Below are positions 1,570 through 20,636 of a DNA stretch of 64,000 bases, in pieces; within the stretch, counting starts at the first letter, position 1, and every line of letters starts with the position of its first letter. The DNA is from an uncultured Acidobacteriota bacterium (GTDB lineage Bacteria; Acidobacteriota; Thermoanaerobaculia; UBA5066). The notes under the pieces were generated by a model. It ran no database searches. It was not told where the DNA came from and was given only the letters and a program-made list of their open reading frames with translations. The stretch spans positions 480,001 through 544,000 of the forward strand of contig CAVZYA010000002.1 in the NCBI GenBank assembly GCA_963779415.1. The letters run 5' to 3'. A program made the translations under genes and the position numbers.

Positions 1570-1627
1570 GGTCGATTGGGGTCGCGTCTTGGGTCGATTG
1601 GGGTCGCGTCTTGCGTTTCTACTATAC
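1570..1627 (+). repeat. 28-bp GGGGTC site, locus A, with 22-bp tandem duplication
   Basis: (ggtcgattggggtcgcgtcttg)x2 at 1570-1613. Full site ggggtcgcgtcttgcgtttctactatac at 1600-1627. Confidence 0.8.
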
Positions 1628-1793
1628 GTCGCAAACGCTCGGCGCGGCTGCGGGCTGTTCCGGGAGGTCCATTCGGCCGAAGCGTTTGGACCGACGCAGC
1701 CAACGTGATCGAGCCGAGGCGCGCCTCTTTGAGTTCGTAGTGCCCATCGCGCCGCATCCGGAATTCGGTGCTCGGACCGAGTGTCGCCGCCGG

Positions 1794-2195
1794 TCACGGT
1801 CGAACGTCGAAGCCTGCGTGCCGGAAGTGCCGGTCGAATGAGAAGACCTGCTTCAGCCGGTGACGAGTCATGAGAGCGAACGACACGCAGTCCGTGAAGC
1901 TGACGCCCTGGTCGGCGAACTTGCGGAACAGATCGACGGCGGCGATCTCGTCCGCGGCATCGGGCCGCAGGATCGTGAGAAGGCGGGAAGAGTAGAAAAC
2001 CTCGGCCCGCTCCGCGGCGAAGGCATAGGTCGTCCGTCGTGCCAGAAGCGTCAGCGTCTCGTCGACGACGAAGTTGGACGTGAAGAGAGGGGAACCCAGG
2101 CGTTCGAGCTGCTTCCAGGCGCGGACCGCTCGCCGGTGGTGCTGATCACCCGCGACGTACCGGGCGAGGAATGCCCCGGTGTCGACGAAAATCAC
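1794..2195 (-). CDS. vapC: PIN-domain toxin (VapC family)
   Basis: MIFVDTGAF, VVDETLT, SFTDCVSFA and FSFDRHF carry the PIN acidic residues. Overlaps the antitoxin stop codon. Confidence 0.9.
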   Translation of the reverse strand: MIFVDTGAFLARYVAGDQHHRRAVRAWKQLERLGSPLFTSNFVVDETLTLLARRTTYAFAAERAEVFYSSRLLTILRPDAADEIAAVDLFRKFADQGVSFTDCVSFALMTRHRLKQVFSFDRHFRHAGFDVRP

Positions 2196-2449
2196 GGCTT
2201 CCCGTAAAGGTACCGATCGTGGTGCCGCGCAAGGTCGCGAGGCGCGGCGCCCCGGAAGATCGCGCCGTCGGAAAAGAGGGGATCCTCGGTTGCCGTCGGG
2301 ACCGCGCGGGGAATCGCAGCATCGAGCGACTCGCGAATCAGGGCGCCCAGCGAAACCCCCCGCTCCCTCGCGCGGCGAAACGCGCGCCGCCGCAGGTCGG
2401 ATGGCAGCATAACCGTCGTGCGCTTCAGGGAAGATGAGGTGGCGCTCAT
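2192..2449 (-). CDS. CopG/ribbon-helix-helix antitoxin (VapB-type)
   Basis: KRTTVMLPSDL...GVSLGALIRESLD RHH pattern and DLARHHDRYLYG C-terminus. Start chosen at ATG 2449, 7 nt after TATTAT. Confidence 0.8.
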   Translation of the reverse strand: MSATSSSLKRTTVMLPSDLRRRAFRRARERGVSLGALIRESLDAAIPRAVPTATEDPLFSDGAIFRGAAPRDLARHHDRYLYGKP

Positions 2450-2563
2450 GACCGCCATAATAACGCCGCCATAACTCCTTGCCAACGGGTTCGCGATCGC
2501 GCCTTCATCTCGATTGGCGAGGCGTCTCTATCCCTTTCCCGCCCGCCGGGCGTACCTATAATT

Positions 2564-2591
2564 GGGGTCGGGCACCTATTATAGAAGTCAA
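2564..2591 (+). repeat. 28-bp GGGGTC site, locus B (GCACC variant)
   Basis: ggggtcgggcacctattatagaagtcaa. AT-rich tail, more divergent than the other copies. Confidence 0.6.
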
Positions 2592-2650
2592 ACTCCTCGG
2601 ACCAGGCGGTCCGGCTGCCAATGGAGCCTCTCGGGCAATCCTGATGCGAG

Positions 2651-2950
2651 CTACCGCTTTTCCTTCCTGATTCCTTCGATCGCCCGCTCGCAGTCGTCGT
2701 TGATTCGCTGGCGGTCGATCTGGTACTCGCGCTCGGCGGCCAGGCGCGCTTCGGGGTCGCCCGTCTTCTTCAGCGCGTCCTTGAAGAGGATCTCGCGTTC
2801 GGCGAGGCGGGAGGAGGCGATGCGCCGGGCCTCGGCGATGGCTTCCTTCTGCTTCGCGGTCAGCGGGGTCTCTTTCGTGCCGGCCTCGCGGTCCCCGGCC
2901 TCGAGGCGCTCCATCGCAAGCTCGATCGCGGTCTTCGGTTTGTCTCCCAT
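2651..2950 (-). CDS. small helical hypothetical protein
   Basis: 99-aa ORF MGDKPKTAIELAMERL..., host-like codon usage, charged helical composition. Confidence 0.75.
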   Translation of the reverse strand: MGDKPKTAIELAMERLEAGDREAGTKETPLTAKQKEAIAEARRIASSRLAEREILFKDALKKTGDPEARLAAEREYQIDRQRINDDCERAIEGIRKEKR

Positions 2951-3166
2951 GTCTCTCTTCTACACCAGAAACGCGCCGGGCAGCGGCCGAAGGCCCTCTG
3001 CGTCGGCCGGACGTCCCACGTGGAGCAGGACGAGGCTGGCAAGAACGTTTCTCATGAAGTTTCCCCGCGCCATTCTCCCCGTTTTTCCCGCCGGCGAGGG
3101 TGAAAGAGAGGCCTCCGAGGTCATGTCTCGTGTTCGTGAAGAGGGGCTGGCGGTAGAATTCAGAAT

Positions 3167-3376
3167 ATGAAGTCGTACCCGGCTGTCATCGAAAAGTGCC
3201 CGGACACGGGGCTCTACGTCGGCTATGTGCCCGGTTTCCCCGGAGCGCATTCTCAAGGGGAAAGTCTGGATGAGCTGCACGAGAACCTTCGAGAAGTGGT
3301 GACGATGCTGCTGGAAGACGGCGACCCGAAACTGTCGTCGGAATTCGTCGGGATATATTCGGTGCAGGTGGCTTAA
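3167..3376 (+). CDS. hicB: HicB family antitoxin
   Basis: YPAVIEKCPDTGLYVGYVPGFPGAHSQGESLDELHENLREV, typical short HicB. Confidence 0.9.
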   Translation: MKSYPAVIEKCPDTGLYVGYVPGFPGAHSQGESLDELHENLREVVTMLLEDGDPKLSSEFVGIYSVQVA

Positions 3377-3378
3377 GC

Positions 3379-3612
3379 GTGGGCACGATCCCCGTGCTGA
3401 AACCACGGGAGGTCGAACGGCTCCTCGAACGCGTCGGATTCGTACTGATCCGGCAGCGCGGTTCTCACCGGCAGTACCGGCACCCGGATGGGCGGCAGAC
3501 GACGCTGCCGTTTCACGGCAACCGGGACGTCTCGCCGATCCTGTTAAGGCAGATTGCGCGAGATATCGGGTTGACGCCGGAACAGCTCCTGCAGGGGCCT
3601 GCCGGAGCGTAG
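3379..3612 (+). CDS. hicA: HicA family mRNase toxin
   Basis: LERVGFVLIRQRGSHRQYRHPDGRQTTLPFH contains the GSH motif. Adjacent to hicB. Confidence 0.9.
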   Translation: MGTIPVLKPREVERLLERVGFVLIRQRGSHRQYRHPDGRQTTLPFHGNRDVSPILLRQIARDIGLTPEQLLQGPAGA

Positions 3613-3781
3613 GGAAACAGGGTCAGCTCGGATCAGGGCCGCGGCTCGCCGGGGCTAAAGACTCAATCCAGATCCGTCGGCACTGCTTTTCGGCCTCGCG
3701 AAGGCCGAGCCTTCTATCAAGATGCTCTGATCAGTCGCCGGTCCGCCCCGACGGCGCATCGCTCTATAAGTCAACCGCCGC

Positions 3782-5134
3782 TCAGCGCGCCGGGGAGGGG
3801 GTGCCCGCCAGCTCGAGGACGGAAAGGGTGAAGGCCGCGACGCCGTTGCGGATGGTGGGGGCGGGGTCGGGCGCAAAGCCGGAGTTGTGGGGGCCGGGGG
3901 CGACCTTCCCCTCGGCCTTCAGGCGCGCGAACTCGTTCGGCTCGATGGCGCCGATCTGCATCTGGATGCCGGGGGCGCCCGCGACGCGGCCGAAGACGCC
4001 GAAGTCCTCGGAGGTCATCGTTGGCTGGCCCTTGACGACGGCCGAATCGCCGAGCGCCTTCTTCAGGCCGGCCATGAGGCGGTCGGCCAGAGCGGGGTCG
4101 TTCACGACGACCTCGCTCGCCTCGGTCGGGTGGACGACGACGAGGGGCTCGCGCGGGGCGCGGCCGGCCGCGGCCTCGGCCTTGGCGATCCGCTCGATGG
4201 CCGCGAGAAGCTGCTTCTGGACCTCGGGGCTGAAGGAACGGACGGTGAGCTGCAGCGTCGCGTCGTCGCCGATGATGTTGCGCTTCGTCCCGGCATGGAA
4301 GGTGCCGACGGTGACGACGGCGGGATCGAACGGGTTCACCTCGCGCGAGACGATGGTCTGCAGGGTGACGACGGCGCGGGCCGCGATGACGAGGGGGTCG
4401 ACGGTGGCGTTGGGCATGGCCCCGTGCCCCCCCTTGCCGTAGAAGGTGATGTCGACGCCGTTCGAGGCCGCGGAGGCCGGGCCGCCGAAGATCCCGATCT
4501 GGCCGGCGGGGAGGTGGTTGCTGTCGTGGATGCCGAGGACGTAATCCGGCTTCGGGAAGCGGGTGAAGAGGCCGTCGGACGTCATCGCCACCGCGCCCTG
4601 AACAGTCTCCTCCGCCGGCTGGCCGACGAAGACCAGCGTCCCGTGCCAGCGGTTCTTCATCTGGGCGAGGAGCGTGGCGGCCCCCACCCACGAGGCCATA
4701 TGGATGTCGTGGCCGCAGGCGTGCATCACGCTCACGGTGTCGCCGGCGTCGTTCTTCGTCGTGACGGTGCTGGCGTAGGGGAGCCCCGTCTGCTCCTTGA
4801 CGGGGAGGGCGTCCATGTCGGTGCGGAGCAGGATCACCGGCCCCGGGCCGTTCTTCATGACGGCCACGACGCCGAACCCCCCGACGTGCTCGGTCACCTC
4901 GTAGCCCAGCGCGCGCATCCGCGCGGCGAGCTTCGGTGCGGTCTTTTCCTCGTGGAGGGAAAGCTCGGGGTTGCGGTGGAGGTCCAGGTAGAGCGTTTCG
5001 AGCCCGGGCCAGGCCGCGTCGAATCCCGCGAGAGCGGGCGGCTCGGCGGCGGGTACGGCGGCGGCGCCGGGCGCGACGGGAACCAGCGCGAAGAGAACGG
5101 CGAGAGCGGAGAGGGCACGGCGAATATGCGTCAT
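3782..5134 (-). CDS. M20 family amidohydrolase with signal peptide
   Basis: LHRNPELS, RTDMDALP, MHACGHD, QPAEE, GGHG and SEDF motifs. Confidence 0.9.
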   Translation of the reverse strand: MTHIRRALSALAVLFALVPVAPGAAAVPAAEPPALAGFDAAWPGLETLYLDLHRNPELSLHEEKTAPKLAARMRALGYEVTEHVGGFGVVAVMKNGPGPVILLRTDMDALPVKEQTGLPYASTVTTKNDAGDTVSVMHACGHDIHMASWVGAATLLAQMKNRWHGTLVFVGQPAEETVQGAVAMTSDGLFTRFPKPDYVLGIHDSNHLPAGQIGIFGGPASAASNGVDITFYGKGGHGAMPNATVDPLVIAARAVVTLQTIVSREVNPFDPAVVTVGTFHAGTKRNIIGDDATLQLTVRSFSPEVQKQLLAAIERIAKAEAAAGRAPREPLVVVHPTEASEVVVNDPALADRLMAGLKKALGDSAVVKGQPTMTSEDFGVFGRVAGAPGIQMQIGAIEPNEFARLKAEGKVAPGPHNSGFAPDPAPTIRNGVAAFTLSVLELAGTPSPAR

Positions 5135-5212
5135 AGGGCGGGGATGCTACTACCTCGGCCGGTCTGTCCTATTCTCCGAAAGCCCGATGGGCACCCCCCT
5201 CAAGGAGCCGAA

Positions 5213-8200
5213 ATGAACCGCCCGCTCGCGCTCTTCCTTGGCGTTCTACTTTCGTCGACGCTTTCCGTGAAGGCTCAGGAGCCGGAAAAGCCGAAGACGC
5301 CCTTCTCGTCCGAGACGTTCTCCGGGATCAAGCTGCGCGAGATCGGCCCGGCCGTCACGTCGGGCCGCGTCGCCGACATCGCGGTCGTCCCCGATCACCC
5401 CGCCGTCTGGTACGTGGCCGCGGCCTCGGGGGGCGTCTGGAAGACGACGAACGCCGGGACGACCTGGACGCCCCTCTTCGACAAGGAGGGGTCGTACTCG
5501 ATCGGCTGCGTCACGGTCGACCCGCAGAACCCGAACGCGATCTGGGTGGGGACGGGGGAGAACAACTCGCAGCGAAGCGTCGGGTACGGCGACGGCGTCT
5601 ACCGGTCGCTGGACGGCGGGAAGAGCTGGAAGAACATAGGGCTGAAGTCGTCGGAGCACATCGGGAAGATCGTCGTCGACCCGAAGAACTCCGACGTCGT
5701 CTATGTCGCCGCGCAGGGGCCGCTCTGGGCGGCCGGGGGCGACCGGGGCGTCTACAAGACGACGGACGGCGGGAAGACGTGGAAGGCCGTCCTTTCGATC
5801 TCGGAGAACACGGGGGCTTCCGACCTCTGGATGGACCCGCGCGACCCGAACGTCCTCTACGCGACGTCGTACCAGCGGCGGCGGCACGTCTGGGGGATGG
5901 TGGACGGCGGGCCGGAGTCGGCCATCTGGAAGACGACGGACGCCGGCGCGACGTGGCGGAAGCTGGAGAAGGGGATCCCCAAGGCGGACCTCGGGCGGAT
6001 CGGCCTCGCCGTCTCGCCTGCGGACCCGGACGTCGTCTACGCGATGATCGAGGCGACCGACCCGAAGGACCGCGGGACGTACCGGTCGACCGACCGGCGG
6101 CGAGAGCTTCACGCGCGTGGGGGACTACTCGGCGCCGGGGCCGCAGTACTACCAGGAGATGATCCCCGACCCGAAGGACGTCGACCGCGTCTACTCGATG
6201 GACGTCTTCAACATGGTGACCGAGGACGGCGGGAAGACGTGGAAGCGGCTGGGCGAGAAGAACAAGCACGTCGACAACCACGCGCTCTGGATCGACCCGG
6301 CCGACACGAGCCACCTCGTCAACGGGAACGACGGCGGCGTCTACGAGAGCTGGGACCGCGGGGCGACGTGGGAGTTCAAGGCGAACCTCCCCGTCACGCA
6401 GTTCTACCGGGTGGCGCTGGACGAGTCGAAGCCGTTCTACTACGTCTACGGCGGGACGCAGGACAACACGACGCTCGGCGGCCCGTCGCGGACGACGACG
6501 GTGCACGGGATCGTCAACTCGGACTGGTTCGTGACGACGGGGGGCGACGGCTTCTTCTGCGCCGGTCGACCCGAAGGACCCGAACATCGTCTACTCCGAG
6601 TCGCAGCACGGAGACCTCGCCCGCTTCGACCGGAAGTCGGGGGAGGAGGTCGACATCCAGCCGCAGGCCGGGCCGGGCGAGGCGCCGCTTCGCTGGAACT
6701 GGGACTCGCCGGTGATCATCAGCCCCTTCTCGAACACGCGGATCTACTTCGCCGCGCAGAGGCTCTTCCGGAGCGACGACCGGGGCGACGACTGGAAGGC
6801 GGTCAGCGGCGACCTGACGCGGCAGGTCGACCGGAACAGGCTGAAGATGATGGGACGCGTCTGGGGACCGCGACGCCGTCGCGAAGAACACGTCGACGTC
6901 GTTCTACGGAAACATCGTCTCGCTGGCCGAGTCGCCGAAGAAGGAAGGGCTCCTCTACGTCGGGACCGACGACGGCCTCGTGCAGGTGACCGAGGACGGC
7001 GGCGCGAACTGGCGGAAGGCGGAGACCTTCCCCGGCGTGCCGGCGAACGCGTACGTCTCCCATCTCGCGCCGTCGCCGCACGACGAGGGGACGGTCTACG
7101 CGGCGTTCGACAACCACAAGATGGGGGACTTCAAGCCGTACCTGCTCAAGAGCACGGACCGCGGGAAGACGCTGGACGTCGATCGCCGGAGACCTCCCGG
7201 CGCGCGGGACGGTCTACACGGTCGCCGAGGACCCGGCGAAGGCCGGCCTCCTCTTCTGCGGGACGGAGTTCGGGCTCTTCTTCTCGCCCGACGGCGGGAA
7301 GCAGTGGATCCAGCTCAAGGGCGGGATGCCGACGATCGCCGTCCGCGACCTCGCGATCCAGAAGCGCGAAGGGGACCTCGTCCTCGCGACGTTCGGGCGG
7401 GGCTTCTTCGTCCTCGACGACCTGACGCCGATCCGGCCGCGCGACCGACGAGCTGCTCGCGAAGGAGGCGGCGCTCCTCCCGGTGCAAGAACGCGTGGAT
7501 GTACGTCCCGTCGATGCCGCTCGGGCTAAGGGACAAGGCGTTCATGGGAGAGTCGTTCTACGCGGCCCCGAACCCGCCGTTCGGCGCGGTCTTCACGTAC
7601 TACCTGAAGGACGAGCTGCGGACGAAGAAGAAAGCGCGGCAGGCCGAGGAGAAGAAGATCGCGGCGAAGGGGGGAGACGTCTTCTACCCGCCGTGGGACG
7701 AGCTCAGGGCCGAGGAGCGGGAGGAGGAGCCGACGATCGTCCTGACGGTGACCGACGGAGCTGGAAACGTCGTCCGGCGGCTCGCGGGAGCGGTGAAGGC
7801 GGGATTCCACCGCGTCGCGTGGGACCTGCGGTACCCGGCGTCGAACCCGACGCGCCCGCCGAAGGCCGAGGAGGACCCCGAGAGCATCTTCATGCCGCCG
7901 CTCCGCGGCCCGCTCGCGATGCCGGGGAGCTACACCGTCACGCTGGAGAAGAAGGTGGACGGCGTGGTGACGAAGCTGGCCGAGCCGGTGAGCTTCACGG
8001 CCGAGGTGCTCGGCACGGCCAGCCTTCCCGCGCCCGACCGCGCGAAGGCGCTGGAGTTCGAGAAGAAAGTGGCGCGGCTGCAGCGGGCCGTCCTCGGCTC
8101 GGTGGAACTGTCGAAGGAAGCGGAAAAGCGGCTCGAGATGCTGCAGAAGGCGCTTTTCGACACTCCCGCGGCCGACGCCGCGCTGATGGCGCGCGCGAAG

Positions 8201-8512
8201 GAGCTGAGCCTGAATCTGAAGGGGATCGAGGAGCAGCTCTCGGGAGACAAGGTGATCGCGAAGTACCAGGAGCCCGTGCCGCCGTCGATCAACCAGCGCG
8301 TCCAGCGGATCGTCCACGCCCTCTGGTCTTCGACCTCCGCCCCCACCGGCACCCAGCAGCGGGGGTACGACATCGCCGCCCAGCAGTTCGCGCCCGTCCT
8401 CGCGAACCTCCGGACGCTCGTGGACTCGGACATGAAAGCGCTCGAGACGAAGGCCGAAGCCGCCGGCGCCCCGTGGACCACGGGACGCGTTCCGACGTGG
8501 CAGCCGGAATGA
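5213..8512 (+). CDS. secreted BNR/VPS10 (sortilin-like) beta-propeller glycosyl hydrolase-like protein; about 6 frameshifts
   Basis: AAGGAG RBS, signal peptide and repeated Asp-box motifs (SxDGGxTW). Coding continues across ORFs 3887, 6117, 6712, 6980 and 7326, with shifts near 6100, 6560, 6865, 7170, 7440 and 7485. Confidence 0.8.
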
Positions 8513-8590
8513 TCAAACGGGGTCAATCAAACGGGGTCGCGTCTCAATTATCCGAATCAAACGGGGTCGCGTCTCAATTATCTATTATAC
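8512..8590 (+). repeat. 28-bp GGGGTC site, locus C, with two upstream partial duplications
   Basis: atcaaacggggtc occurs three times (GGGGTC at 8519, 8533, 8563). Full site ggggtcgcgtctcaattatctattatac at 8563-8590. Starts at the upstream gene's TGA. Confidence 0.9.
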
Positions 8591-8649
8591 GTGGCCCTCG
8601 CATCGCGGGACGTCGGGCTTCTTCCTTCCCCACGGGGGCGATCTTCGTT

Positions 8650-11600
8650 TCAGATCGCCGGCGCCAGTTCGGTTCCTTCCGGCTCCTGCTTGGCCTCTGT
8701 CGCCTCGGGCGCGGTGGCGGCATGGGTCCGCGCCACGAGGACGTAGATCGACGGCACGACGAGGAGGGTGAAGGCGGTGCCGACGATCATGCCGGTGACG
8801 AGCATGATGCCGATGGAGTTCCGCGCGCCGGCGCCCGGGCCGCGCGCGAAGACGAGCGGCAGGTGGCCCATGACCGTGGCCGCCGTCGTCATCAGGATGG
8901 GCCGGAGGCGCGTGCTCGCGGCCTCGACGACGGCCTGCACCTTGCCGACGCCCTGTCTCCTGGAGCTTGTTCGCGAACTCGACGATCAGGATGCCGTTCT
9001 TGGCGATGAGGCCGACGAGGGTGATGAGGCCGACCTGGCTGTAGATGTTGAGCGACGTGAGGCCGAGGAACGAGAAGAGGAGCGCGCCCGAGAGCGCCAG
9101 CGGCACGGAACCGGCCAGGATGATGAACGGGTCGCGGAAGCTCTCGAACTGGGCGGCGAGGACGAGGTAGATGAGGATGGCGGAGAGGAGGAAGGTGCCG
9201 AGGAACTTGCTCCCCTCGGTCCGGAGCTGGCGCGACTCGCCCGCGTAGTCGATGGTGAAGCCCTTCGGCAGGATCTTGGCCGCCTCGGTCCTCGAGGAAG
9301 ACGAGCGCCTTGTCGAGGGAGACGCCCGGCGGGATGACCCCCTGGACGCGCACCGCGTTGAGCTGCTGGAAGCGCTTCAGCTCGCGCGGCTCGGTCGTCG
9401 TCTTCAGCGAGGCGAAGGTGGAGAGCGGGACGAGCTTCCCGTCGGCGCCCGTGACGTAGATCTGGCGAAGCTGGTCGGGGGTGAGGCGCTCGACACGCTT
9501 GACCTGCGGGATGACCTTGTAGCTCCGCCCCTGGATGCTGAAGCGGTTGACGTAGTTCCCGCCGAACAGGGTGGAGAGGTCCTTCCCCGCGTCGGAGAGG
9601 TTCACGCCCTGGGCCCGCACCTTGTCGCGGTCGAAGACGACTTCGACCTGCGGCTGGTCGAACTTGAGGTCGGAGTCGGCGAACATGAAGAGACCGCTCT
9701 GGAACGCCTTCCCGACGAGCTGGCCCGCGAAGCCGGCCAGCTGCTCCGGCTCGGCGGTGGAGGCAATGACGAAGTCGACCGGGAAGCCGCTCCCTCCGGG
9801 AAGAGGGGGCGGAGTGAGCGAAATGACGCGGACGCCGGCGATCTTCGAGGACTTCGCGGCCGCGAGCATCTGCAGGTCCTGGGTGGAGCGCTTCCGCGCG
9901 CTCCAGGGTTTCGTGACCATGCCGCCGAAGCCCCCGCTCGGGGAGGTGATCTGGAAGATGCTCTCGCTCTCGGGGAAGGACCGGTAGACGTCGGCCACCT
10001 GCGAGGCGAAGAGCGTCGTCTGGTCGAGGGTGGCGTTCGGGGCCGCCTGGATGACGCCGAAGACGACGCTCTGGTCCTCCTTCGGCGCGAGCTCCTTCTG
10101 GGAGAAGAGATAGAAGGGGACGATGAGGAGCGTGACGAGGACCCAGAGCGTGAGGACGACGGGCCGGTAGTTCAGGGTCGCGGCGAGCTGACGCGCGTAC
10201 GTGGCGCGGAACGCAGTCGAAGCGCCGGTTGACCCAGCCGGCGAAGCCGCGCTCGGAGTCGCCGGACCGAAGCAGCTTCGAGCCCATCATCGGCGAGAGG
10301 GTGAGCGCCACGACGCCCGAGACGATGACGGCGCCCGCCAGCGTGAAGGCGAACTCGCGGAAGAGCGCGCCGGTGAGGCCCCCCTGGATGCCGATCGGGG
10401 CGTAGACCGCGGCGAGCGTGATCGTCATCGCGATGATCGGCCCGACCAGCTCGCGGGCGGCCTTCATGGCGGCTTCGAGCGGCTTCTGGCCGAGCTGGAG
10501 GTGCCGCTCGACGTTCTCGACCATGACGATGGCGTCGTCCACGACGAGCCCGACGGAGAGGACGATCGCGAGGAGCGTGAGGAGGTTGATCGTGAAGCCG
10601 GCGAGGAACATCAGGAAGACGGCGCCGACGAGCGAGACCGGGATCGCCACGACCGGGATCACGACCGACCGGTACGAGCCGAGGAAGAGGAAGATGACGA
10701 GGACGACGATGAGGAGCGTCTCGGTGAGGGTCTTCAGGACCTCGTCGATGGCGTCCTGGATGTAGGCCGTGGAGTCGTACGGGATCCCGACTTTCATCCC
10801 GGCCGGGAGCTGCGCGCGGATCTCGGGAATGGCCTCCCGCACCCGCTTGATGACCTCGAGCGCGTTGGCCGTTCGGGAGGACCCAGATCCCCATGAACGT
10901 GGCGTCCTGCCCGTTGAAGTGGACGTCGGAGTCGTAGTCCTCGGCGCCGAGGACGACGTCGGCGATCTCGCCGAGCCGGACGATGGTTCCCCTCGTCCTG
11001 CTTGACGACGAGCTGGCGGAACTCCTCGGCGGTCTGGAGGTTCGTGTTCGCGACGAGGTTCACGGAGACCATCGAGCCCTTCGTGCGGCCGAGGGCGGAG
11101 AGGTAGTTGTTGTTCGCCAGCGCGTCGCGCACCTGCGAGGCGGAAAGGCCCGAGGGCGGCCATCTGGTCGGGCTTCAGCCAGATCCGCATCGCGAACGTC
11201 CGGCTCCCGAGGATGTCGGCGCGCTGCACGCCGCTGATCGGCCGCGAGCTTCGGCTGGACGACGCGCGTCAGGTAGTCGGTGATCTGGTTCTGGTCGAGG
11301 TCCGCGGAGGAGAAGCCGATGTACATCGACGCGAACTGCGAGTCGGCCGTCTGGAGGTCGATGACGGGGGCCTGCGCCTCGGGCGGGAGGTCGTTCCGCA
11401 CCTGCGCGACCTTGGCCTGCACCTGCGTCAGCGCGGCGTTCGTGTCGTAGTTGAGCTTCAGGTGGACGGTGATGGTGCTGACGCCCTGCGCGCTCGACGA
11501 CTCGAGGTAGTCGATGCCGTCGGCGCTCGCGATGACGCGCTCGAGCGGGGTCGTGATGAAGCCGCGGACGAGGTCGGCGTTCGCGCCGACGTAGACCGTC

Positions 11601-11743
11601 GTCACCTGCACGACGGCGATGTCGCTGCGCGGGAACTGCCGGACGGAGAGCGAGCGGATCGACTGGAGCCCCGCGATCGTGATGACGAGGCTGACGCAGA
11701 CCGCGAGGACGGGCCGCCGGATGAAGAGGTCGGTGAGCTTCAT
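8650..11743 (-). CDS. RND efflux permease (AcrB family, MexI/MexW-like); multiple frameshifts
   Basis: MKLTDLFIRRPVLA start, GLVVDDAIVMVENV, GLIAKNGILIVEFA and RLRPILMTT, spread over several frames. Confidence 0.85.
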
Positions 11744-12877
11744 CAGGAGTCCTGCGGCTTCGGGGCCGGGTCGTTGCCCGGCTGGACCTCGTTGTTCACC
11801 TCGACGGATGCGCCGGTGCGGAGCTTGAAGACGCCCGAGGTGACGATCTCCTGCCCGGGCTTCAGGCCGGAGAGGATCGCCACCTGGTCGCCGCGGGAGC
11901 GCCCCAGCTTCACGAACTGCTGCTGGGCGCCGCGGTAGGAGACGCCGGCCGGGTTCTTCATCTCGGCCACGACGAAGACGGAATCGCCGTAAGGCGCGTA
12001 GCTGATGGCCGAGGCCGGGAGCGCGATCACCGTCGTCGTCGTTCCGAGCAGCAGCTCGGTCTCGACGAACATCCCGGGGCGGAGCGTGCCGCTCGGGTTC
12101 GGAAGCGTCGCCTGCACCTGGACGTTCCTCGTCCCCTCGTCGACGATCGAATCGAGCGCCGTGACCTTGCCGGCGAGCTCGGCCGGGGGATCCGTCGCGC
12201 CCTGCGCCGTGACGCGGACGGCGGCGCCGACCCTCACGCGGCCGACTTCCTGCTGCGGGATCGAGAAGTTGACGTAGATCGGGTCGAGGGACTGAAGCGA
12301 CACGATCCGGTCTCCCGCCGCGAGGTACTGGCCGAGGTTCGCGTGGCGGATGCCGAGCATCCCCGTGAAGGGGGCCCGGATCGTCTTCCGCTCGATGGTC
12401 GCCTTGATCTCGCCGACGCGGGCTTCTCCCTGCACCTGGGCCGCGACGGCGCTGTCGAGGTCGGCCTGCGGCAGGACGCCGCCGTCGCGGAGCCCGCGGG
12501 CCCGCTCGAGGTTGAGGCGCGCGAGGGCGAGCTGCGCCTCCGCCGCCGCCAGCTGGGCGCGCTCCTGCCGGGTGTCGAGCGTCGCGAGGACCGTGCGCTG
12601 CGTCACCGTCTCGTCCCGACTCGAACGCGATCGTGTCGACGACGCCCGGAAGGTCCGCGCTGACCGTGACGCCCTGGACGGCCACGACGCTGCCGATGGC
12701 GGTCAGATTGGCCGGCCATTCCACTTCCCGGGCGACGGTCGTCGTGACGGCTTCCGGCGGCGGCTGGTAGGAGGAGTTCTGGGCGATGGAAGCCTTGACC
12801 TGCCGGACCTTGAGCGTCCCGACGGCCGCGAGGAAGACGGCCACGAGGGCCAGCATCAGCGCCATCCGTTTCTTCAT
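11743..12877 (-). CDS. RND periplasmic adaptor (membrane fusion protein); frameshift near 12610
   Basis: N-terminal TM, GVTVSADLPGVV, IRAPFTG and LRPGMFV. Stop overlaps the permease start. Confidence 0.85.
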
Positions 12878-12948
12878 GAAGAACTTCCCTTCGGGTCCGC
12901 CCGGGCGGACGCAGAGCGAGGACCGGACGGAGAAGAATACGTCACCAC

Positions 12949-13016: not shown

Positions 13017-13065
13017 CTATAATATAAAATAGAGACACGACCCCACTGAAGCGACCCCACTGAAG
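13017..13065 (-). repeat. 28-bp GGGGTC site, locus D, with 14-bp duplication
   Basis: Minus strand reads (cttcagtggggtcg)x2 then tgtctctattttatattatag. Full site at 13017-13044. Confidence 0.9.
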
Positions 13066-13089
13066 TAGGAACTAGAGTCGCCTTCCGAC

Positions 13090-15009: not shown

Positions 15010-15097
15010 AGACTCCGTCCGCTTGGTCAGACCACGAGCCGAGGAAGAACGTCCATCGGAACCATCGGAACCTCCGATACGGCTTCATAATCTCACC

Positions 15098-16600
15098 GTG
15101 GCGGGGCTTCGCGCGCTGTTCTTCCTTCTGCTCTCCGCGCTCGTCGCGCTCTCCGGCGCGGCCCAGTCTCCGGCCACCTTCGTGACGCCCGCCGGAACGG
15201 CGCTGCCGCTCCGTGTCGAGGAAGCGGAAGGAAAGACGTTCTTCGCCGTCGCGGACGTCGTGGCGGCGCTCGAGGGGACGGCCTCCTTCGACACCGAGAC
15301 GCGCTCGTACGAGGTGAAGCTGAAGGCGCACACGGCGATCTTCGGAGGCGACGCGCCGCTCGCCGTCGTCGACTCGAAGATCGTCTACCTCGCCGGGCCC
15401 CTCCGGACGAAGGGAAGCCTCGCTTTCGCCGACACGGAGTTTTTCGGCCGCGTCTTCGGCCCGATGACGGGACTCTCGTTCGCGTGGGACGCCGGGAGAA
15501 GGACGCTCACGGCGTCGCGGGGGCCGGCCGTGGAGATCACGGCCGAGGCGAGCGTCACCGACGTCGGAGAGGCGACGAAGGTCGTTCTCCGCTTCTCGCA
15601 GCCGCCGCAGTACCGCGTCGAGAAGGGGGACGAGACGGTCGTCCTGAAGTTCCCCGGCGCGCGAATCGTCGCGGCCACGCCCGAGAAGAGCGTGGACGGG
15701 CCGCGCGTGGCGCGCGTCGTCCTCCGGCCGGGCGAGGCGGTGATCACGCTCCGGGGAAAGGACTTCGCGACGAACGTCTACCCGCTCGGCGGTCCGCCGC
15801 GCCTCGTCGTCGACGTGACGCGGCCGGCCGCCGGCACGGCGGAGGCCGTCGGGACGGCGCCGGCCCCGGAGACGTCGAAGGCGCGGATCGTCGTCCTCGA
15901 CGCCGGGCACGGCGGGAGCGAGGAGGGGGCGAAGGGGCCCGCGGGACTTCTCGAGAAGGACGCGACGCTCGCCCTCGAAAAGACGATGCAGGAGGTCCTC
16001 TCGAGACACGGCTACCGCGTCGTCTCGACGCGGACGACCGACGCGACGGTCTCGCTCGAGGACCGTGCCGCATCGGCCAACGGCGCGAAGGCCGACGTCT
16101 TCGTCTCGCTCCACGCGAACGCCTCGCGGAGCCCCTCGGCGCACGGGACGGAGGTCTACTACCTCTCTCTCGACGCCTCCGACCGCGCGGCGGCCCTCCT
16201 CGCCGAGAGCGAGAACAAGGCGGTCGAGACGCCGACGGCCGGGAAGAACGCCGCGGGGCGCGACCTCGACCTCATCCTCTGGGATCTCGCGCAGAACCAG
16301 CACCTCGCCGCGTCCGAGCGGCTCGCGGAGATCATCCAGGCGGACTTCAACCGGCTTCTCGGCGTCTCGTCACGCGGCGTGAAGCAGGCGCCCTTCCGCG
16401 TCCTGATCGGCGTGAACGCCCCCGCGGTCCTCGTGGAGGTGGCCTTCATCACGAACCCCGAAGAGGAGAAGAAGCTCGCGTCGGAAGAGTTCCGTCGGCA
16501 GACGGCGGAGACCCTGGCCGGGAGCCTCGACACCTTCTTCCGGACGGCGGCCTCGGTTCCGCCCGTCCCGAGCGCGCCGAGGCCGCCAGGGCGTCCCTGA
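15098..16600 (+). CDS. N-acetylmuramoyl-L-alanine amidase (Amidase_3, AmiC-like with AMIN-like region)
   Basis: VVLDAGHGG, EKDATL, FVSLHANAS and PAVLVEVAFITN, with a signal peptide. Confidence 0.9.
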   Translation: MAGLRALFFLLLSALVALSGAAQSPATFVTPAGTALPLRVEEAEGKTFFAVADVVAALEGTASFDTETRSYEVKLKAHTAIFGGDAPLAVVDSKIVYLAGPLRTKGSLAFADTEFFGRVFGPMTGLSFAWDAGRRTLTASRGPAVEITAEASVTDVGEATKVVLRFSQPPQYRVEKGDETVVLKFPGARIVAATPEKSVDGPRVARVVLRPGEAVITLRGKDFATNVYPLGGPPRLVVDVTRPAAGTAEAVGTAPAPETSKARIVVLDAGHGGSEEGAKGPAGLLEKDATLALEKTMQEVLSRHGYRVVSTRTTDATVSLEDRAASANGAKADVFVSLHANASRSPSAHGTEVYYLSLDASDRAAALLAESENKAVETPTAGKNAAGRDLDLILWDLAQNQHLAASERLAEIIQADFNRLLGVSSRGVKQAPFRVLIGVNAPAVLVEVAFITNPEEEKKLASEEFRRQTAETLAGSLDTFFRTAASVPPVPSAPRPPGRP

Positions 16601-16607
16601 ACGCGTC

Positions 16608-17393
16608 ATGCCGCGCCGCTTCGCCCTCGGCCTGATCGGCCTCCTCGTCCTTCTTCTCGCCGCCCTCCTGATTGCGCGTCGTCTCGCGACGACACCGACG
16701 GGCCGTCCGGGAGAGACGCGGCCGGTGTCCGCTCCGCCGACCCCCGTCGTCCCTCCGACACCGATCCCCGGCCGGCGCGTCTCGCTCTTCTTCGAGCCGA
16801 AGGAGGGAGAGCTTTTCCGGGCCGAGAGGCGCGAGATTCCGGCGACGTCGGACGACGTTGCGTTTCTCCGGACGCTCGCTTCGGCGGTCCTCGACGGCCC
16901 GCGGCACCCGGATCTCCTCCGTCCCTTCCCGGAAGGGTGGAGCGTTCGGGGCGCGTACCGGCTGCAGGGCGGACTGGTCGTCGTGGATCTCGCCCCCCCC
17001 GCCCTCGCCCCCGTCGCCGGCGCCGAGGGCCCCCCCGTTCCCGAGACGGTCCTGGCCTCGCGCTGGCAGACCGGATCGCACGAGGAGCTGGCGGCCGCGC
17101 AGGCGCTCCTCATCACGCTGGCGAAGAACGCCCCGGACGTCGCGAAGGTGGTGCTCGTGATCGCGGGGGAGCCGGTCGAGACGCTCGCGGGGCATCTCGA
17201 TCTGACGCATCCGCTCCTGCCGGACCTGGCCCGAGCCGGAGAGGAGGCGCCGCTGGAGGTGGCCATCCCCCCGGCGGCGGAAAGCGTTCCGACCCCGCCG
17301 TCCGTCTCCCCGGCTCCGCCGGCGACGTCGCCCTCGCCTCCCCCGCCGGAACCGAAACGCGAGCGGGCCGGCCCGCGAACGGACGTCACGTGA
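16608..17393 (+). CDS. GerMN domain protein
   Basis: N-terminal TM, LFRAERREI, LDGP, GSHEE and VETLAGHLDL. Confidence 0.8.
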   Translation: MPRRFALGLIGLLVLLLAALLIARRLATTPTGRPGETRPVSAPPTPVVPPTPIPGRRVSLFFEPKEGELFRAERREIPATSDDVAFLRTLASAVLDGPRHPDLLRPFPEGWSVRGAYRLQGGLVVVDLAPPALAPVAGAEGPPVPETVLASRWQTGSHEELAAAQALLITLAKNAPDVAKVVLVIAGEPVETLAGHLDLTHPLLPDLARAGEEAPLEVAIPPAAESVPTPPSVSPAPPATSPSPPPPEPKRERAGPRTDVT

Positions 17394-18214
17394 CCGACCG
17401 CCGGCCGATCGGCCTCTTCGACTCGGGGGTGGGAGGGCTCACCGTCCTCGACGCGGTGGCGCGCCGTCTTCCCTCCGAGAACCTCCTCTATCTCGGCGAC
17501 ACGGCGCGGCTGCCGTACGGGACGAAATCCCCGGAGACGGTGCGGCGCTACGCGCGGCGGGCGGTGGAATACCTCCTCGGGCACGACGTCAAGGCGCTCG
17601 TCGTCGCCTGCAACACCGCCTCGGCGCTCGCGCTCGACCTGATCGAGGAGATCTCGCCCGTCCCGGTCGTCGGCGTCGTCGCCCCGGGGGCCGCCGCCGC
17701 CGTCGCGGCCGTCCGGGAGCTCGAGGCGGAAGGGGAGGCGCCCTCTCCGATCGCCGTTCTCGCGACGGAGGCGACGGTCGCCTCGGACGCTTACGGACGG
17801 GCGGTGCGCGCGCTCGATCCCGATCGAAAGGTCCTCCACACGGCGTGCCCGCTCTTCGTCCCGCTCGCGGAGGAGGGGTGGACGGACAACGAGGTGGCGC
17901 GCGCGGCCGCGGCGCGCTATCTCGGGCCGGTCCGCGCCTCGGGCGTGCGCATCGTCGTCCTCGGCTGCACGCACTACCCGCTTCTCCGGGGGACGATCGC
18001 CGAGGCGCTCGCGCCCGGAACGCGTCTCGTCGACTCGGCCGAGGCGGCCGCCGCAGCCGTCGATGCCGCGCTCGTTCCGGAAGCGCGGCGCGGGGGAAAC
18101 GCCGCCGGCGAGACGCACCTTCTCGTCACGGACGCGTCGGAGCGCCTCGCCCGGATCGCCGTCCGGTTCCTCGGGCGCGAGGCGGTGCGCCTCGAGGGGA
18201 TCGACCTTCCGTGA
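17390..18214 (+). CDS. murI: glutamate racemase
   Basis: IGLFDSGVGGLTV, PYGTKS, VACNTAS and LGCTHYP. Confidence 0.95.
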   Translation: MTDRRPIGLFDSGVGGLTVLDAVARRLPSENLLYLGDTARLPYGTKSPETVRRYARRAVEYLLGHDVKALVVACNTASALALDLIEEISPVPVVGVVAPGAAAAVAAVRELEAEGEAPSPIAVLATEATVASDAYGRAVRALDPDRKVLHTACPLFVPLAEEGWTDNEVARAAAARYLGPVRASGVRIVVLGCTHYPLLRGTIAEALAPGTRLVDSAEAAAAAVDAALVPEARRGGNAAGETHLLVTDASERLARIAVRFLGREAVRLEGIDLP

Positions 18215-18240
18215 GCGCCCCTGGAGGAGAATCGGAGGCC

Positions 18241-19047
18241 ATGACGTCCCTCCTCCGCCCCGACGGCCGCGCGGCACGCGAGATGCGCCCCGTCTTCCTC
18301 ACGCTCGACCCGGTTCCCCACGCGGAGGGATCGTGTCTCGCCGAGCAGGGAAAGACGCGGATCCTCGTGACGGCCACGGTGGAGGAGAAGGTCCCGCCGT
18401 TTCTCCGCGAGAAGGCCGAGGGGTGGATCACGGCGGAGTACGGAATGCTTCCGCGCGCGACGCTCGAGCGGACGCCGCGCGAGGCCTCTCGCGGCAAGCA
18501 GTCGGGGCGGACGCTGGAGATCCAGCGCCTCGTCGGCCGCGCGCTCCGGGGCGTTGTCGACCGGAAGCTCCTCGGCGAGCGGACCGTCACGCTCGACTGC
18601 GACGTCCTCGTGGCCGACGCGGGGACGCGCTGCGCCTCGATCACGGGGGCCTTCGTCGCCCTCGCTCTCGCGGTTTCGAGGCTGCACGAGAAGAAGCTCG
18701 TGAAGCGAAGCCCGTTCCGCGAGGCCGTCGCGGCGATCTCCGTCGGGTGGACGGGCGGGGAGGCCGTCCTCGACATGACGTACGCCGAGGACTCGACCGC
18801 CGAGGTCGACTTCAACATCGTCGGGACGTCGGCGGGGCGCTTCGTCGAGCTGCAGGGGACGGCAGAAGGGGCGCCTTTCGGCCCGGAGGAGCTTCGCCGG
18901 ATTCTCCTCGTCGGGCGGAAGGGGCTCGCCGCCCTCTTCGCGGCGCAGGGACGCGCTCTCGACGGGCAGCTCCCGGCCGAGTGGTGGAAGGCGATCTACG
19001 GGTCGGTGCGCGGCGCGGCGGCCGCTTCGGCGTCGGCCGGCCGCTGA
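18241..19047 (+). CDS. rph: ribonuclease PH
   Basis: RPDGR, GWITAEYGMLPRAT, GRTLEIQRLVGRALR, DAGTRCASITG and ELQGTAEG. Confidence 0.95.
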   Translation: MTSLLRPDGRAAREMRPVFLTLDPVPHAEGSCLAEQGKTRILVTATVEEKVPPFLREKAEGWITAEYGMLPRATLERTPREASRGKQSGRTLEIQRLVGRALRGVVDRKLLGERTVTLDCDVLVADAGTRCASITGAFVALALAVSRLHEKKLVKRSPFREAVAAISVGWTGGEAVLDMTYAEDSTAEVDFNIVGTSAGRFVELQGTAEGAPFGPEELRRILLVGRKGLAALFAAQGRALDGQLPAEWWKAIYGSVRGAAAASASAGR

Positions 19048-19057
19048 CGCCGGCGCT

Positions 19058-19823
19058 TCAGCCGAGGAAAGTCCGCAGCGCTTCCGCGAGGCGCCTCGGC
19101 TCCTCCAGCATCGGGTAATGCCCGAGGCCCGGAAGAAGCGTGAACGTCGCATCGGGACGGGCGACGAGGAGCCTCCGCGACTCCTCGGGCGGGGCGAGGG
19201 GGTCGAGCGCTCCCGCGAGGATCAGAAGCGGCGTCCTCGTCCCGCGCAGCCGCTCGACGAGGGGCGGAGCGTCGAGGACGCCGTCCACGCTCATCTCCAC
19301 GGCCCGGGCGAGCGCCGCCCCTTCGGGCCCCTTCCGCGACGAGACGGTCCGCTCGACGAAGGCTCGCTTTCCGGGCGAGTCGACCGCAAAGCCGTAGGCC
19401 GAGGCTCTCCGGAGCGAGGAGTCCGGGACGCTGGTCAGCACCGAGCGGCGCGACATTCCCTTCCACTTCAGCCGGTCCGTGAATCCGTACGGAAATCGCC
19501 CCGACCGGGTTCACGAGGACGAGCTTCCTGACGCGCGACGGCTCGCGGGAGGCGAGCTCTCCCGCCACGCGGCCGCCGAGGGAGTGCCCGACGACGTACG
19601 CCCGCGGAAGCTCCCGCTCCTCCATCTCGTTCTCGACGTACCGCGCGAGCGAGACGAGGTCATAGCCGCTCGCCGGCTTCGGCGCCGCGCCGCAGCCGAG
19701 AAGGTCGAGCGGATGGACGTCGTAGTGCTTCTCGAGGAGCTTCGCCGCCTCTTCCCAGTCGGCGGCGGAGCCCCCGACGCCGTGCAGGAGGACGAGAGTC
19801 GCTTTCGCTTTCTTCGCCGTCAT
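19058..19823 (-). CDS. alpha/beta hydrolase; frameshift near 19495
   Basis: LLHGVGG and GHSLGG in one frame, GALD and GLGHYPMLE in the next. Confidence 0.8.
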
Positions 19824-19842
19824 CGCGGAGAATGGTAACGGA

Positions 19843-19917
19843 CGGGGCGTAGCGCAGTGGTAGCGCACGTGCTTTGGGAGCACGTGGTCGCCGGTTCGAT
19901 CCCGGCCGCCCCGACCA
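19843..19917 (+). tRNA. tRNA-Pro(TGG)
   Basis: CGGGGCG acceptor stem, D-loop AGTGGTA, anticodon arm cgtgc-tttggga-gcacg, GGTTCGATCC and encoded CCA. Confidence 0.97.
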
Positions 19918-19973
19918 CCTCTCCGTCACCCTCGGCAGGCCCCCGGAAGAGATCCGGCGTGCCGAGCCGGTCA

Positions 19974-20001
19974 CTATAATTGACAATTGAGACACGACCC
20001 C
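19974..20001 (-). repeat. 28-bp GGGGTC site, locus E
   Basis: Minus strand ggggtcgtgtctcaattgtcaattatag, 4 nt after the stop codon of ORF 20006-20344. Confidence 0.9.
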
Positions 20002-20005
20002 GCTC

Positions 20006-20344
20006 TTAGGGCTTCCTGTGTCGCCGGCCGGACCGCGCCCCCTGGTACTCCGCCAGAGCCGCCGCGAGAAACGCGAGACCTTCCGACGACGTGGCGAGCC
20101 GGAGCGCCTCCTGGGCGCTCATCGTCAGCGCCCGCCGGTAAAGAACGGCCGCCGCGACGTGCCGCAGGACCTGGCCCAGCTGCTCGGAGACGCCCAGGGC
20201 ATCCGCGAAGGCGGGACTGCGCCCGGCGCCGGCCCTCGCGGAGGATTCGCCGATGCTCTCGACGAGCGCCGGGGAGAGCGACTCGCCGATGATGTCGGCG
20301 ACGCGGGCGATGCGGGCGAGGTCGGAGGGGCTGGGCTTCGGCAT
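20006..20344 (-). CDS. hypothetical 112-aa helical protein
   Basis: ORF MPKPSPSDLARIARVAD..., with AAGG upstream. No recognisable motif. Confidence 0.6.
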   Translation of the reverse strand: MPKPSPSDLARIARVADIIGESLSPALVESIGESSARAGAGRSPAFADALGVSEQLGQVLRHVAAAVLYRRALTMSAQEALRLATSSEGLAFLAAALAEYQGARSGRRHRKP

Positions 20345-20352
20345 GGCGGGCC

Positions 20353-20418
20353 TTACTTCCCCCCGCGCTTCCACGTCTTCTTCAGCGGCCCGGACGGGGC
20401 GTGGGTCGTGGCGGCCAT
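20353..20418 (-). CDS. putative 21-aa basic peptide (MAATTHAPSGPLKKTWKRGGK)
   Basis: ATG...TAA between a good promoter and the 112-aa ORF. No SD. Confidence 0.3.
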   Translation of the reverse strand: MAATTHAPSGPLKKTWKRGGK

Positions 20419-20440
20419 TTTCGGCTTTCTGATGCCGAAT

Positions 20441-20469
20441 AACGTAATACCGCGCGCCGAGCCGGTCAA
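20441..20469 (-). promoter_or_regulatory. sigma70-type promoter
   Basis: TTGACC (20469-20464), 17-bp spacer, TACGTT (20446-20441). Confidence 0.6.
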
Positions 20470-20497
20470 GGCGTCCGGAATCGGTCTGCCCGGGCCC

Positions 20498-20554
20498 TAT
20501 AGGGGGTCACGCCGTATAGGGGGTCAGGTACCAATTTTATATTATGTGACCCCC
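20498..20554 (+). repeat. 28-bp GGGGTC site, locus F (GTACC variant), with duplication and closing inverted end
   Basis: tatagggggtca x2. Full site ggggtcaggtaccaattttatattatgt at 20520-20547, ending in tgaccccc (reverse complement of gggggtca). Confidence 0.8.
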
Positions 20555-20608
20555 GGCACGCGCTCCAGTTCCACGTGCCACTTTCAGGGAAGGGCTCGAT
20601 ACCGTTTC

Positions 20609-20636
20609 CTATAATTGATAATGGAGACGCGACCCC
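20609..20636 (-). repeat. 28-bp GGGGTC site, locus G
   Basis: Minus strand ggggtcgcgtctccattatcaattatag. Confidence 0.9.

Follow-up and report, generated by a model that had tools for sequence, protein, structure and literature searches.

A stretch of 64,000 nt from the genome of an uncultured Acidobacteriota bacterium (hereafter the window; C2:480001-544000 in a genome of 4.36 Mb on three contigs, C1 to C3, with 68% G+C and 92% completeness) carries, within its first 21 kb, seven dispersed sites that begin with the hexamer GGGGTC, and this raises the question of what such sites are and which enzyme they serve. A preliminary description, made from the window alone, read them as recognition sites of a recombinase or of an HUH (Y1/RAYT-like) enzyme encoded elsewhere, and supposed that this enzyme moves or accumulates single-gene cargo somewhat in the manner of an integron. 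We find the enzyme, and not the cargo system. With a probability of about 0.85, the sites are dispersed singles, together with one doublet, of the 28-29-bp terminal inverted repeats (TIRs) of TIRYT elements, the "TIRtrons" that the available text of Di Nocera, De Gregorio and Rocco (2013, PMC3733652) presents as RAYT-like genes flanked by inverted repeats in place of REPs. A catalogued element end, which the preliminary description had counted against its own proposal, is in part what was found, the motif being the GGGGWSAS TIR of TIRYT genes (PMC3733652).

TIRs bracket the Y1 transposase genes of the genome

The genome encodes four intact Y1_Tnp (PF01797) genes, all located outside the window and all scoring above the cut-off (E 3.8e-12 to 2.2e-7), in agreement with the expectation that an HUH enzyme would be encoded elsewhere. 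All four, with open reading frames (ORFs) of 316-343 aa that are mutually 59-73% identical, are tightly bracketed by inverted 28-mers with their heads outward. The inverted sites C2:1690788/1691840, for instance, lie 1.05 kb apart and enclose a single ORF with NHFH (HUH) and Y..LNP motifs. One further Y1_Tnp fragment contains a stop, and remnants of two more genes follow the sites C1:1172415 and C2:1645680, Y1_Tnp being the sole kind of gene seen between inverted copies (four of four intact genes plus two remnants). The end CAAGACCTGACCCC, linked in the preliminary description to IS200-like Y1 transposase genes, corresponds in reverse complement to nt 1-14 of the type-2 site (defined below) that flanks two of these Y1_Tnp genes.

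The association extends to relatives. In a set of 41 genomes from the order, with G000 and the unpublished G025 counted in, the type-1 pattern with up to two mismatches occurs in 14, a reversed-pattern control in none of the 41, and a TIRYT homologue (E <=1e-10) in 28. Every motif-positive genome possesses a homologue (14 of 14) and every homologue-negative genome lacks the motif (13 of 13), so that the co-occurrence with Y1_Tnp genes for which the preliminary description had asked is borne out; in the other 14 genomes a homologue is present without the type-1 motif, and the genes there bear other tails. More than 5000 homologues were seen in all. In four genomes of the genus, the best homologue (64-67% identity) is enclosed by a pair of inverted type-1 sites spaced about 1 kb, and, among 44 loci examined, a TIRYT ORF is present in 38 and an upstream head-bearing site in 37 of these 38. 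A search for the exact type-1 pattern across 185,579 species genomes returned 12 stretches, in metagenome-assembled genomes labelled Acidobacteriota, Thermoanaerobaculia or Holophagales, plus one labelled Acidithiobacillales.

The head of the sites could also suggest a quite different origin. Inverted repeats of the Tn3 family also begin with GGGG, the head begins with GGGGTC, the sites behave as solo terminal repeats and two of them, F and G, form a short inverted doublet, all of which would suit solo ends or miniature derivatives of a DDE-type insertion sequence or of a Tn3-family transposon. The genes enclosed by inverted copies are nonetheless all Y1_Tnp, TIRYT genes throughout the order are bracketed likewise, and the 92%-complete genome yields no match to DDE_Tnp_Tn3 (PF01526), on which ground Tn3-family ends and miniature inverted-repeat transposable elements were rejected; we consider such an origin scarcely credible.

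A common head and type-specific tails

Genome-wide, about 50 sites can be stacked without gaps into three types, which share the head GGGGTCAGGTC and differ in a 17-nt tail:

Type 1: 26 sites, tail ..ATT(A/T)TC.ATTATAG; flanks the TIRYT gene at C2:1690868-1691815
Type 2: 15 sites, tail ..CT.TAGT(C/A)TGCT; flanks the TIRYT genes at C2:1647097 and C1:1390551
Type 3: 7 sites, tail TGCTAAATTGCGAT; flanks the TIRYT gene at C2:1273654

In all three types the information content rises at position 1 and returns to background after position 28-29, and the fixed length asserted in the preliminary description is right for this reason. Types 1a/1b, 2 and 3 and every gene-flanking TIR contain GGGGTCAG, a sequence that fits GGGGWSAS. 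About 41 copies lie away from intact TIRYT genes, in intergenic DNA, most of them as precise 28-nt singletons; tandem site pairs occur at C1:1539661/1539776, C3:301639/301754 and C2:1350698/1350736, and F/G is the one doublet. Eight type-1 sites fall within 22 kb (C2:478648-500636), a span in which an even spread of 26 sites over 4.36 Mb would give 0.13. The dnaA gene (C2:418760-419244), which is split into two frames, stands at the cumulative GC-skew minimum of C2 (about 420 kb), and the eight-site cluster therefore lies 59-82 kb from the likely origin.

Two other repeat arrangements were seen. At C1:1539661-1539900 and C3:301639-301870, a type-1 site and about 87 nt downstream of it are tandemly repeated with a period of 115 nt, the downstream parts of the two repeats being unlike each other. 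A separate small family of palindromes, TATAAT-N-GGGGTC-N-GACCCC-N-ATTATA (C1:249550, C1:1429743 and C3:256561), looks like two minimal heads fused head to head, each with a -10-like box.

Each site contains a near-palindromic CTATWATAG box, which reads as a -10 hexamer on both strands. At TIRYT loci, the site ends 5-12 nt before the start codon in 27 of 37 cases, and exactly 7 nt before it in 15, with TATACT, TATAGT, TATGCT or similar as its last six bases, from which we infer that the tail end is the -10 box of a leaderless or near-leaderless TIRYT transcript. The gene-proximal TIR would supply a -10-like box (TATACT, TATAGT or TATTCT), mostly ending 7-9 nt before the start codon, and would thus be the promoter of the TIRYT gene and probably a site of autoregulation.

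The orientation of sites relative to neighbouring genes was counted with our own codon-usage gene caller and is correspondingly rough; this caller replaced one based on G+C at third codon positions (68% of the genome covered), and strand calls from GC phase and open frames were dropped, having miscalled known genes such as those upstream of site E. At 40 of 50 sites, the gene next to the head runs in the direction of the site, which extends genome-wide the tendency to follow a same-strand stop codon noted in the preliminary description. Dispersed sites with a called gene within 200 nt gave 19 co-directional against 6 not, or 17 against 5 when the three tandem pairs are collapsed (two-sided binomial p ~0.02). 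On the tail side there is no preference, with 25 genes co-directional and 25 opposed.

Domain architecture of the TIRYT proteins

The 34 aligned TIRYT proteins display the motifs NHFH/NHYH, GH(L/F)(F/L)QGRF, RY(L/V)xLNP and WSS, with N59, H60, H62, N123 and P124 invariant in 34 of 34 and Y119 conserved in at least 90%. An AlphaFold model built from 34 sequences (mean pLDDT 86) matches TnpA_REP 4ER8 over residues 1-189 (Z 17.1, root-mean-square deviation 2.1, 155 residues aligned). The same E. coli TnpA_REP (4ER8) is the closest solved protein by sequence (E 0.01), and Foldseek retrieves 4er8_A at E 3.7e-7 and the IS200/IS605 TnpA proteins (IS608, ISDra2) at E 5e-4 to 1e-3. Residues 229-316 of the model match DnaA DNA-binding domains in complex with DnaA boxes (3PVP, Z 11.4; 1J1V, Z 10.8; 88 residues aligned in each), a region in which Pfam gives only sub-threshold helix-turn-helix (HTH) matches. 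By this predicted structure, the protein is a TnpA_REP-like catalytic domain joined to a DnaA-domain-IV-like double-strand DNA-binding domain, the latter assignment resting on the fold matches to 3PVP and 1J1V and not on profile alignment with hhalign.

The two domains differ in how closely they track the tails of the flanking sites. Pairs of loci with unrelated tails share 65% identity over residues 1-140 and 23% over residues 236-316, against 89% and 70%, respectively, in pairs with matching tails. Spearman correlations with tail identity rise from 0.15 in the N domain through 0.28 in the middle to 0.35 in the C domain (37 loci, with the head nearly invariant), values that are descriptive only, their p-values meaning little, because pairs of related genes are non-independent. 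This pattern fits a sharing of tasks, with the catalytic domain acting at the head and the DnaA-IV-like domain reading the tail. In the mechanism that we propose, the conserved HUH/Tyr domain would act on the invariant head, the fast-evolving C-terminal domain would read the variable tail, and each TIRYT would work in trans on the TIR type that is its own, much as RAYTs are thought to do with REPs.

The sites of the window and their neighbours

Direct reading of the window recovers all seven sites of the preliminary description, which missed the partial tandem copies upstream of A, C, D and F and an eighth member of the cluster, C2:478648, 1.35 kb ahead of the window start. The features are as follows, in window coordinates:

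1570-1591 and 1592-1613, + strand: GGTCGATTGGGGTCGCGTCTTG, an exact tandem copy of 22-nt flank plus head at site A (period 22)
1600-1627, + strand: site A, TIR, type 1c variant, between the convergent GH13 (2-1504, +) and vapC (1794-2195, -) genes
2557-2584, + strand, with the head at 2564: site B, atypical, GGGGTCGG followed by GCACC and TATTATAG, about 21 nt
8512-8590, + strand: whole feature of site C, with the TIR at 8563-8590, 50 nt past the stop of a BNR/sortilin-like gene (6980-8512)
8512-8524 and 8526-8555, + strand: nested partial tandem copies at site C, ATCAAACGGGGTC and ATCAAAC followed by nt 1-23 of the TIR, respectively (periods 44 and 30)
13017-13044, - strand: site D, TIR, 45 nt past the stop of the 13090-13794 gene
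13045-13065, - strand: partial tandem copy at site D, flank plus head CTTCAGTGGGGTCG, taking in 13052-13065 (period 14)
19974-20001, - strand: site E, TIR without tandem copy, 4 nt past the stop of the 20006-20374 gene
20498-20514, + strand: partial copy at site F, with TATAGGGGGTCA at 20498-20509 (period 17)
20520-20547, + strand: site F, TIR, type 1a, in the GGTACC variant that the outer TIRs of the type-1 TIRYT gene also have
20548-20554, + strand: inverted head GACCCCC at site F
20609-20636, - strand: site G, TIR, type 1c, 88 nt past the stop of a Cbp1-family gene (20725-21642, -)

The hexamer GGGGTC by itself is not enriched in the window (59 observed against 87.3 expected), and it is the longer motif that sets the sites apart: the degenerate 27-nt pattern GGGGTCNNGTCTCNNTTNTNNATTATA with up to three mismatches matches A, C, D, E, F and G in the window and nothing in 100 shuffles. 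For these six the gapless alignment of the preliminary description stands; site B is about 7 nt short, fits type 1a only after 7 nt are removed and is missed by the 27-nt pattern at the same tolerance. Its left flank (2557-2569), TATAATT-GGGGTC, equals the left half of the palindrome family mentioned above. The GTCTY sites, said to start 4-90 bp after a stop codon on the same strand, do so at C (50 nt), D (45), E (4) and G (88), and A shares the strand at a distance of 95 nt (distances from Pfam matches and our own gene caller). The GYACC sites B and F do lie upstream of genes and face away from them, B at 79 nt from the start of a vapB-like antitoxin gene at 2485 and F at 146-175 nt from the 20006-20374 gene. 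Together, F and G make up a tails-in inverted doublet of 117 bp (20520-20636), beyond which neither the genome-wide motif scans nor the 27-nt pattern found a family member in the window, as previously reported for the housekeeping block after 21 kb. The earlier view that the sites are neither REP-like palindromes nor terminators also holds: DNA-fold z-scores of -0.6, -2.2, -0.3, +0.4, -1.85 and -0.4 reveal no consistent hairpin and no shared stem, terminator and sigma-70 scans called none of the window sites as a terminator or full sigma-70 promoter, and the sites match no Rfam family, the sole Rfam match being the tRNA.

Several sites are closely wedged between genes. The first copy at site C begins within the stop codon of the BNR/sortilin-like gene, and an RND pump gene on the opposite strand ends at 8650; site D lies about 140 nt upstream of a membrane-fusion/RND operon (start near 12877, -), and site E 57 nt downstream of tRNA-Pro(TGG) (19843-19917, +). 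Toxin-antitoxin genes of the stretch include PIN/VapC (1794-2195, -), its upstream 97-aa partner (2192-2485, -) and HicA (3379-3612, +).

Placement between genes, where toxin-antitoxin loci (vapBC, hicA) abound, would suit integron-like or pdif-like recombination sites that capture and stack accessory genes as cassettes, and C and D, heads outward, do bracket the RND efflux operon, as E and F bracket one small gene. The RND operon (8636-12904) is 91-92% identical in G003, G004, G005 and G007, against 75-80% for the housekeeping block (15173-19931), and the membrane-fusion/RND operon stands in a different context in each genome of the genus, a sequence pattern that points to recent transfer within the genus. 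The four other copies of the operon, however, have no sites at their edges, and its spread thus appears to be independent of the TIRs; among the site pairs listed, no pair other than C-D is of one subtype and has its heads out around genes that are not TIRYTs. Neighbouring members of the eight-site cluster are separated by 1 to about 8 genes, with murI, rph and an amidase gene among them, in place of the single-gene cargo first proposed, and the sites run in mixed orientations (+ + + + - - + -). The sites are not attC-like hairpins, nor are their arms inverted repeats like those of dif. No tyrosine recombinase was found within 70 kb of the cluster, the nearest PF00589 match lying about 88 kb off, and no serine recombinase or resolvase in the genome. 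An integron, with no IntI beside the array, mixed orientations and no attC-like hairpins, was hence rejected, and recombination sites of the cassette kind are very unlikely.

Some window genes are split over frames, namely the RND pump gene (five pieces, 8585-12877), the BNR/sortilin-like gene (3887-6715, 6117-6989 and 6980-8512) and an alpha/beta hydrolase gene (18996-19883 and 19058-19456). Related metagenome contigs lack single bases at 6096, 6098, 6564, 6870, 7170 and 7440, and likewise at 9290, 10213, 10989, 11149 and 11240/1, which suggests that the splits are 1-nt insertion errors of the assembly and not pseudogenes.

Tandem duplication of flank and head

A process acting on the DNA itself is suggested by the tandem copies. 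At least six bases outside the site recur in tandem upstream together with the head, mostly with a period of 14-17 nt, in 19 of the 50 sites, whereas only 13 of the 5771 other occurrences of [AG]GGGTC do so; in the window this is seen at A, C (two nested copies), D and F. By a strict test, 11 of 53 gene-flanking TIRs in relatives are duplicated, with more apparent by eye, and about four degenerate copies of flank plus head accompany the G003 orthologue of site E. The most extreme reiteration seen is at locus L054 (G012), where at least six tandem copies of the 11-nt unit TCGAGATGGGG precede the TIR. Because the outside bases vary by locus, the duplication is not a protein-binding iteron. Reiteration of REP clusters together with flanking DNA is described in PMC3733652, and the available text of the published TIRYT accounts (PMC3733652, PMC6006769) contains no mention of flank-plus-head duplication for TIRs that we could find. 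The tandem copies of 14-17-nt flank plus GGGGTC(A) may be footprints of enzyme action, such as would be left if fill-in or unequal rejoining followed two breaks, one directly past GGGGTC(A) and the other 8-10 nt outside.

A bolder possibility, which we regard as rather unlikely, is that the 28-bp TIRs are mobile in trans, with the DnaA-IV-like domain reading the double strand, the HUH domain nicking the head and the duplications recording a staggered cut, and that two heads-out TIRs may carry host genes between them, as C and D would around the RND operon. If true, such an arrangement would be a Y1-transposase counterpart of composite transposons.

The promoter-like tail, in turn, invites an account in which the 28-mers are operators or portable promoters, the TIRYTs are domesticated, non-mobilising regulators and the dispersed copies are kept to control their neighbours. 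The CTATWATAG box in each site, readable as a -10 hexamer on both strands, and the gene-proximal copy, whose end falls 5-12 nt short of the TIRYT start at 27 of 37 loci, both favour this account, as do the direction of D into the RND operon and of the reverse strand of B into vapBC, the conservation of site E between species and the predicted double-strand DNA-binding fold of the C-terminal domain. Yet A, C and E are placed between convergent genes or opposite the 3' end of a tRNA, where a promoter would have nothing to drive. Only 25 of 50 sites point in the direction of the gene downstream of them, and no site has a -35 element or a sigma-70 call. Furthermore, the locus-specific duplications of flank and head point to a DNA-level process and not to selection on binding sites, and the HUH and Tyr catalytic motifs are kept across the 34 aligned proteins (Y119 at >=90%). 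We hold control of neighbours to be unlikely as the explanation of the sites, and a regulatory role is compatible with TIRYT ends as a secondary one.

Age and mobility of the sites

The history of individual sites can be followed at a few positions. Site E occupies an orthologous place in G003, another species of the genus, and, among metagenome loci, it is intact in L098 and, judged by eye, has a decayed head in L111. G003 lacks F and G and has an extra gene at that position, and a G003 site near 366390 corresponds to a GC-rich stretch of similar length at about 21930 in the window, the common part being GGGGTC alone. Some sites are hence old and some differ between species, E being shared and F, G and the 366390 site not. 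Among public-run contigs, X2 record 15 spans site E with one difference, and X5 record 24 departs from the window at 2556, 8 nt before B. A metagenome scan with the end of the BNR gene gave no matches, and one with the 3' half of tRNA-Pro gave 120 loci, mostly from unrelated organisms, with the TIR pattern in 1 of the 120 (L098). The spot after this tRNA is variable: in L103 and L147 a secreted-protein gene (MKRH...) follows tRNA-Pro directly, G003 has the MKRH gene further on and the window is without it, the 20006-20374 gene that follows tRNA-Pro and site E in the window encoding 122 aa of no known family.

A number of observations weigh against the assignment of the sites to TIRYT elements or against their activity. 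The commonest type in the window, 1c, reads GGGGTCG[CT]G, with G and not A at position 7, and so departs from GGGGWSAS, and no TIRYT gene with exact type 1c ends was found in this genome or in G003. The list of about 50 sites comes from regular-expression and nhmmer scans of the genome that were then curated by eye. On the protein side, the NCBIfam model REP_Tyr_transpos (NF047646) scores 73 bits, under its cut-off of 80, the hhalign alignment with the genome's own DnaA is in register and weak (E 0.0079, probability 5%), and the tracking of tails by the C domain is subject to the non-independence noted above. Replichores defined by GC skew reveal no replication-strand bias (12 + against 14 - on C2, 9 + against 8 - on C1), unlike IS608-type Y1 elements. 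No direct sign of mobility was seen: site E keeps its position in another species, the sole aligned filled/unfilled pair (window ~21930 and the G003 site) is not a clean 28-nt insertion, and four of the seven public runs listed (all of DNA, with small shares of 0.06-0.16, and none of RNA) gave short, low-depth contigs without joints at sites; movement or cleavage of a site was observed in none of the comparisons made.

Relation to known systems

The TIRYT assignment was made by described motifs; TIRs have been published from Koribacter/Terriglobus. In the available text of PMC3733652, TIRs share the motif GGGGWSAS and form moderately abundant families present as singletons, dimers and groups, with an Acidobacteria group singled out. 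According to the available text of Quentin et al. (2018, PMC6006769), TIRYTs are TnpA_Y1 subclass 2.1, equivalent to Bertels' Group 1, with the motifs NH[YF]H, FQ, Y[IV]HLNP and SS and a C-terminal Bac_DnaA_C/HTH-like domain; the searches described there found no repeats near subclass 2.1 genes, and the available part of Bertels et al. (2017, PMC5581495) gives modestly abundant flanking 16-mers for RAYT Group 1. The system described here has a Y1 gene with HUH and Tyr motifs and those of subclass 2.1, and a repeated family of non-hairpin TIRs of GGGGWSAS form. It resembles the TIRtrons, as far as the available descriptions go, in its RAYT-like gene within such TIRs, in the dispersal of the TIRs as singletons, dimers and groups, in an Acidobacteria-specific protein group with an HTH/Bac_DnaA_C-like C-terminus, in about 1-2 gene copies per genome and in flanking words of moderate abundance. 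It differs in protein length (316-343 aa against a median of 238 aa for subclass 2.1; PMC6006769), in the presence of three TIR types with a common head in one genome and in the predominance of precise 28-nt singletons. We found no mention, in the available text of the published accounts, of a -10-like tail 7-9 nt before the start codon or of tracking between C domain and tail; the modular head/tail architecture, the promoter-like tail and the duplications of flank and head seem to be new relative to print.

With REP/REPIN-RAYT systems (E. coli TnpA_REP, 4ER8; Nunvar 2010; Bertels and Rainey 2011), the sites share an HUH/Tyr gene lying within inverted copies of a scattered intergenic repeat, a single-copy enzyme gene whose closest solved structure is 4ER8, clustering of the repeats and tandem reiteration that includes the flank, the last as described in the available text of PMC3733652. 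They differ from REPs in having no palindromic stem-loop and no GTAG/CGTC tag, with GGGGTC as the head, and from RAYTs in the additional domain predicted to bind double-stranded DNA and in a protein that stays under the REP_Tyr_transpos equivalog cut-off. The HUH/Tyr catalytic fold is likewise that of IS200/IS605 elements (IS608, ISDra2), which have subterminal hairpins, no TIRs, a Y---Q motif, many identical copies and a replication-strand bias, whereas here there are TIRs, Y..LNP, genes of 59-73% identity and no such bias. Lastly, the predicted fold of residues 229-316 is that of DnaA domain IV at an identity of just 18-20%. The word TTATC(C/A)A, present in some type-1 tails and absent from those of types 2 and 3, overlaps the DnaA box TTWTNCACA, as given in the available text of PMC6006769, over its first 5-7 positions.

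Implications

TIRYTs (TnpA_Y1 subclass 2.1, RAYT Group 1) are among the largest groups of RAYT-like genes, and our literature search found no experimental or biochemical study of them. With three TIR types, one common head and four cognate genes, the present genome is a compact natural test set, in which the part of the site that each domain recognises and the position of the nick can be put to the test. For annotation, the AT-rich 28-mers of this genome, which stand out against its 68% G+C and coincide with large intergenic gaps and synteny breaks, are to be read as element ends and not as integron sites.

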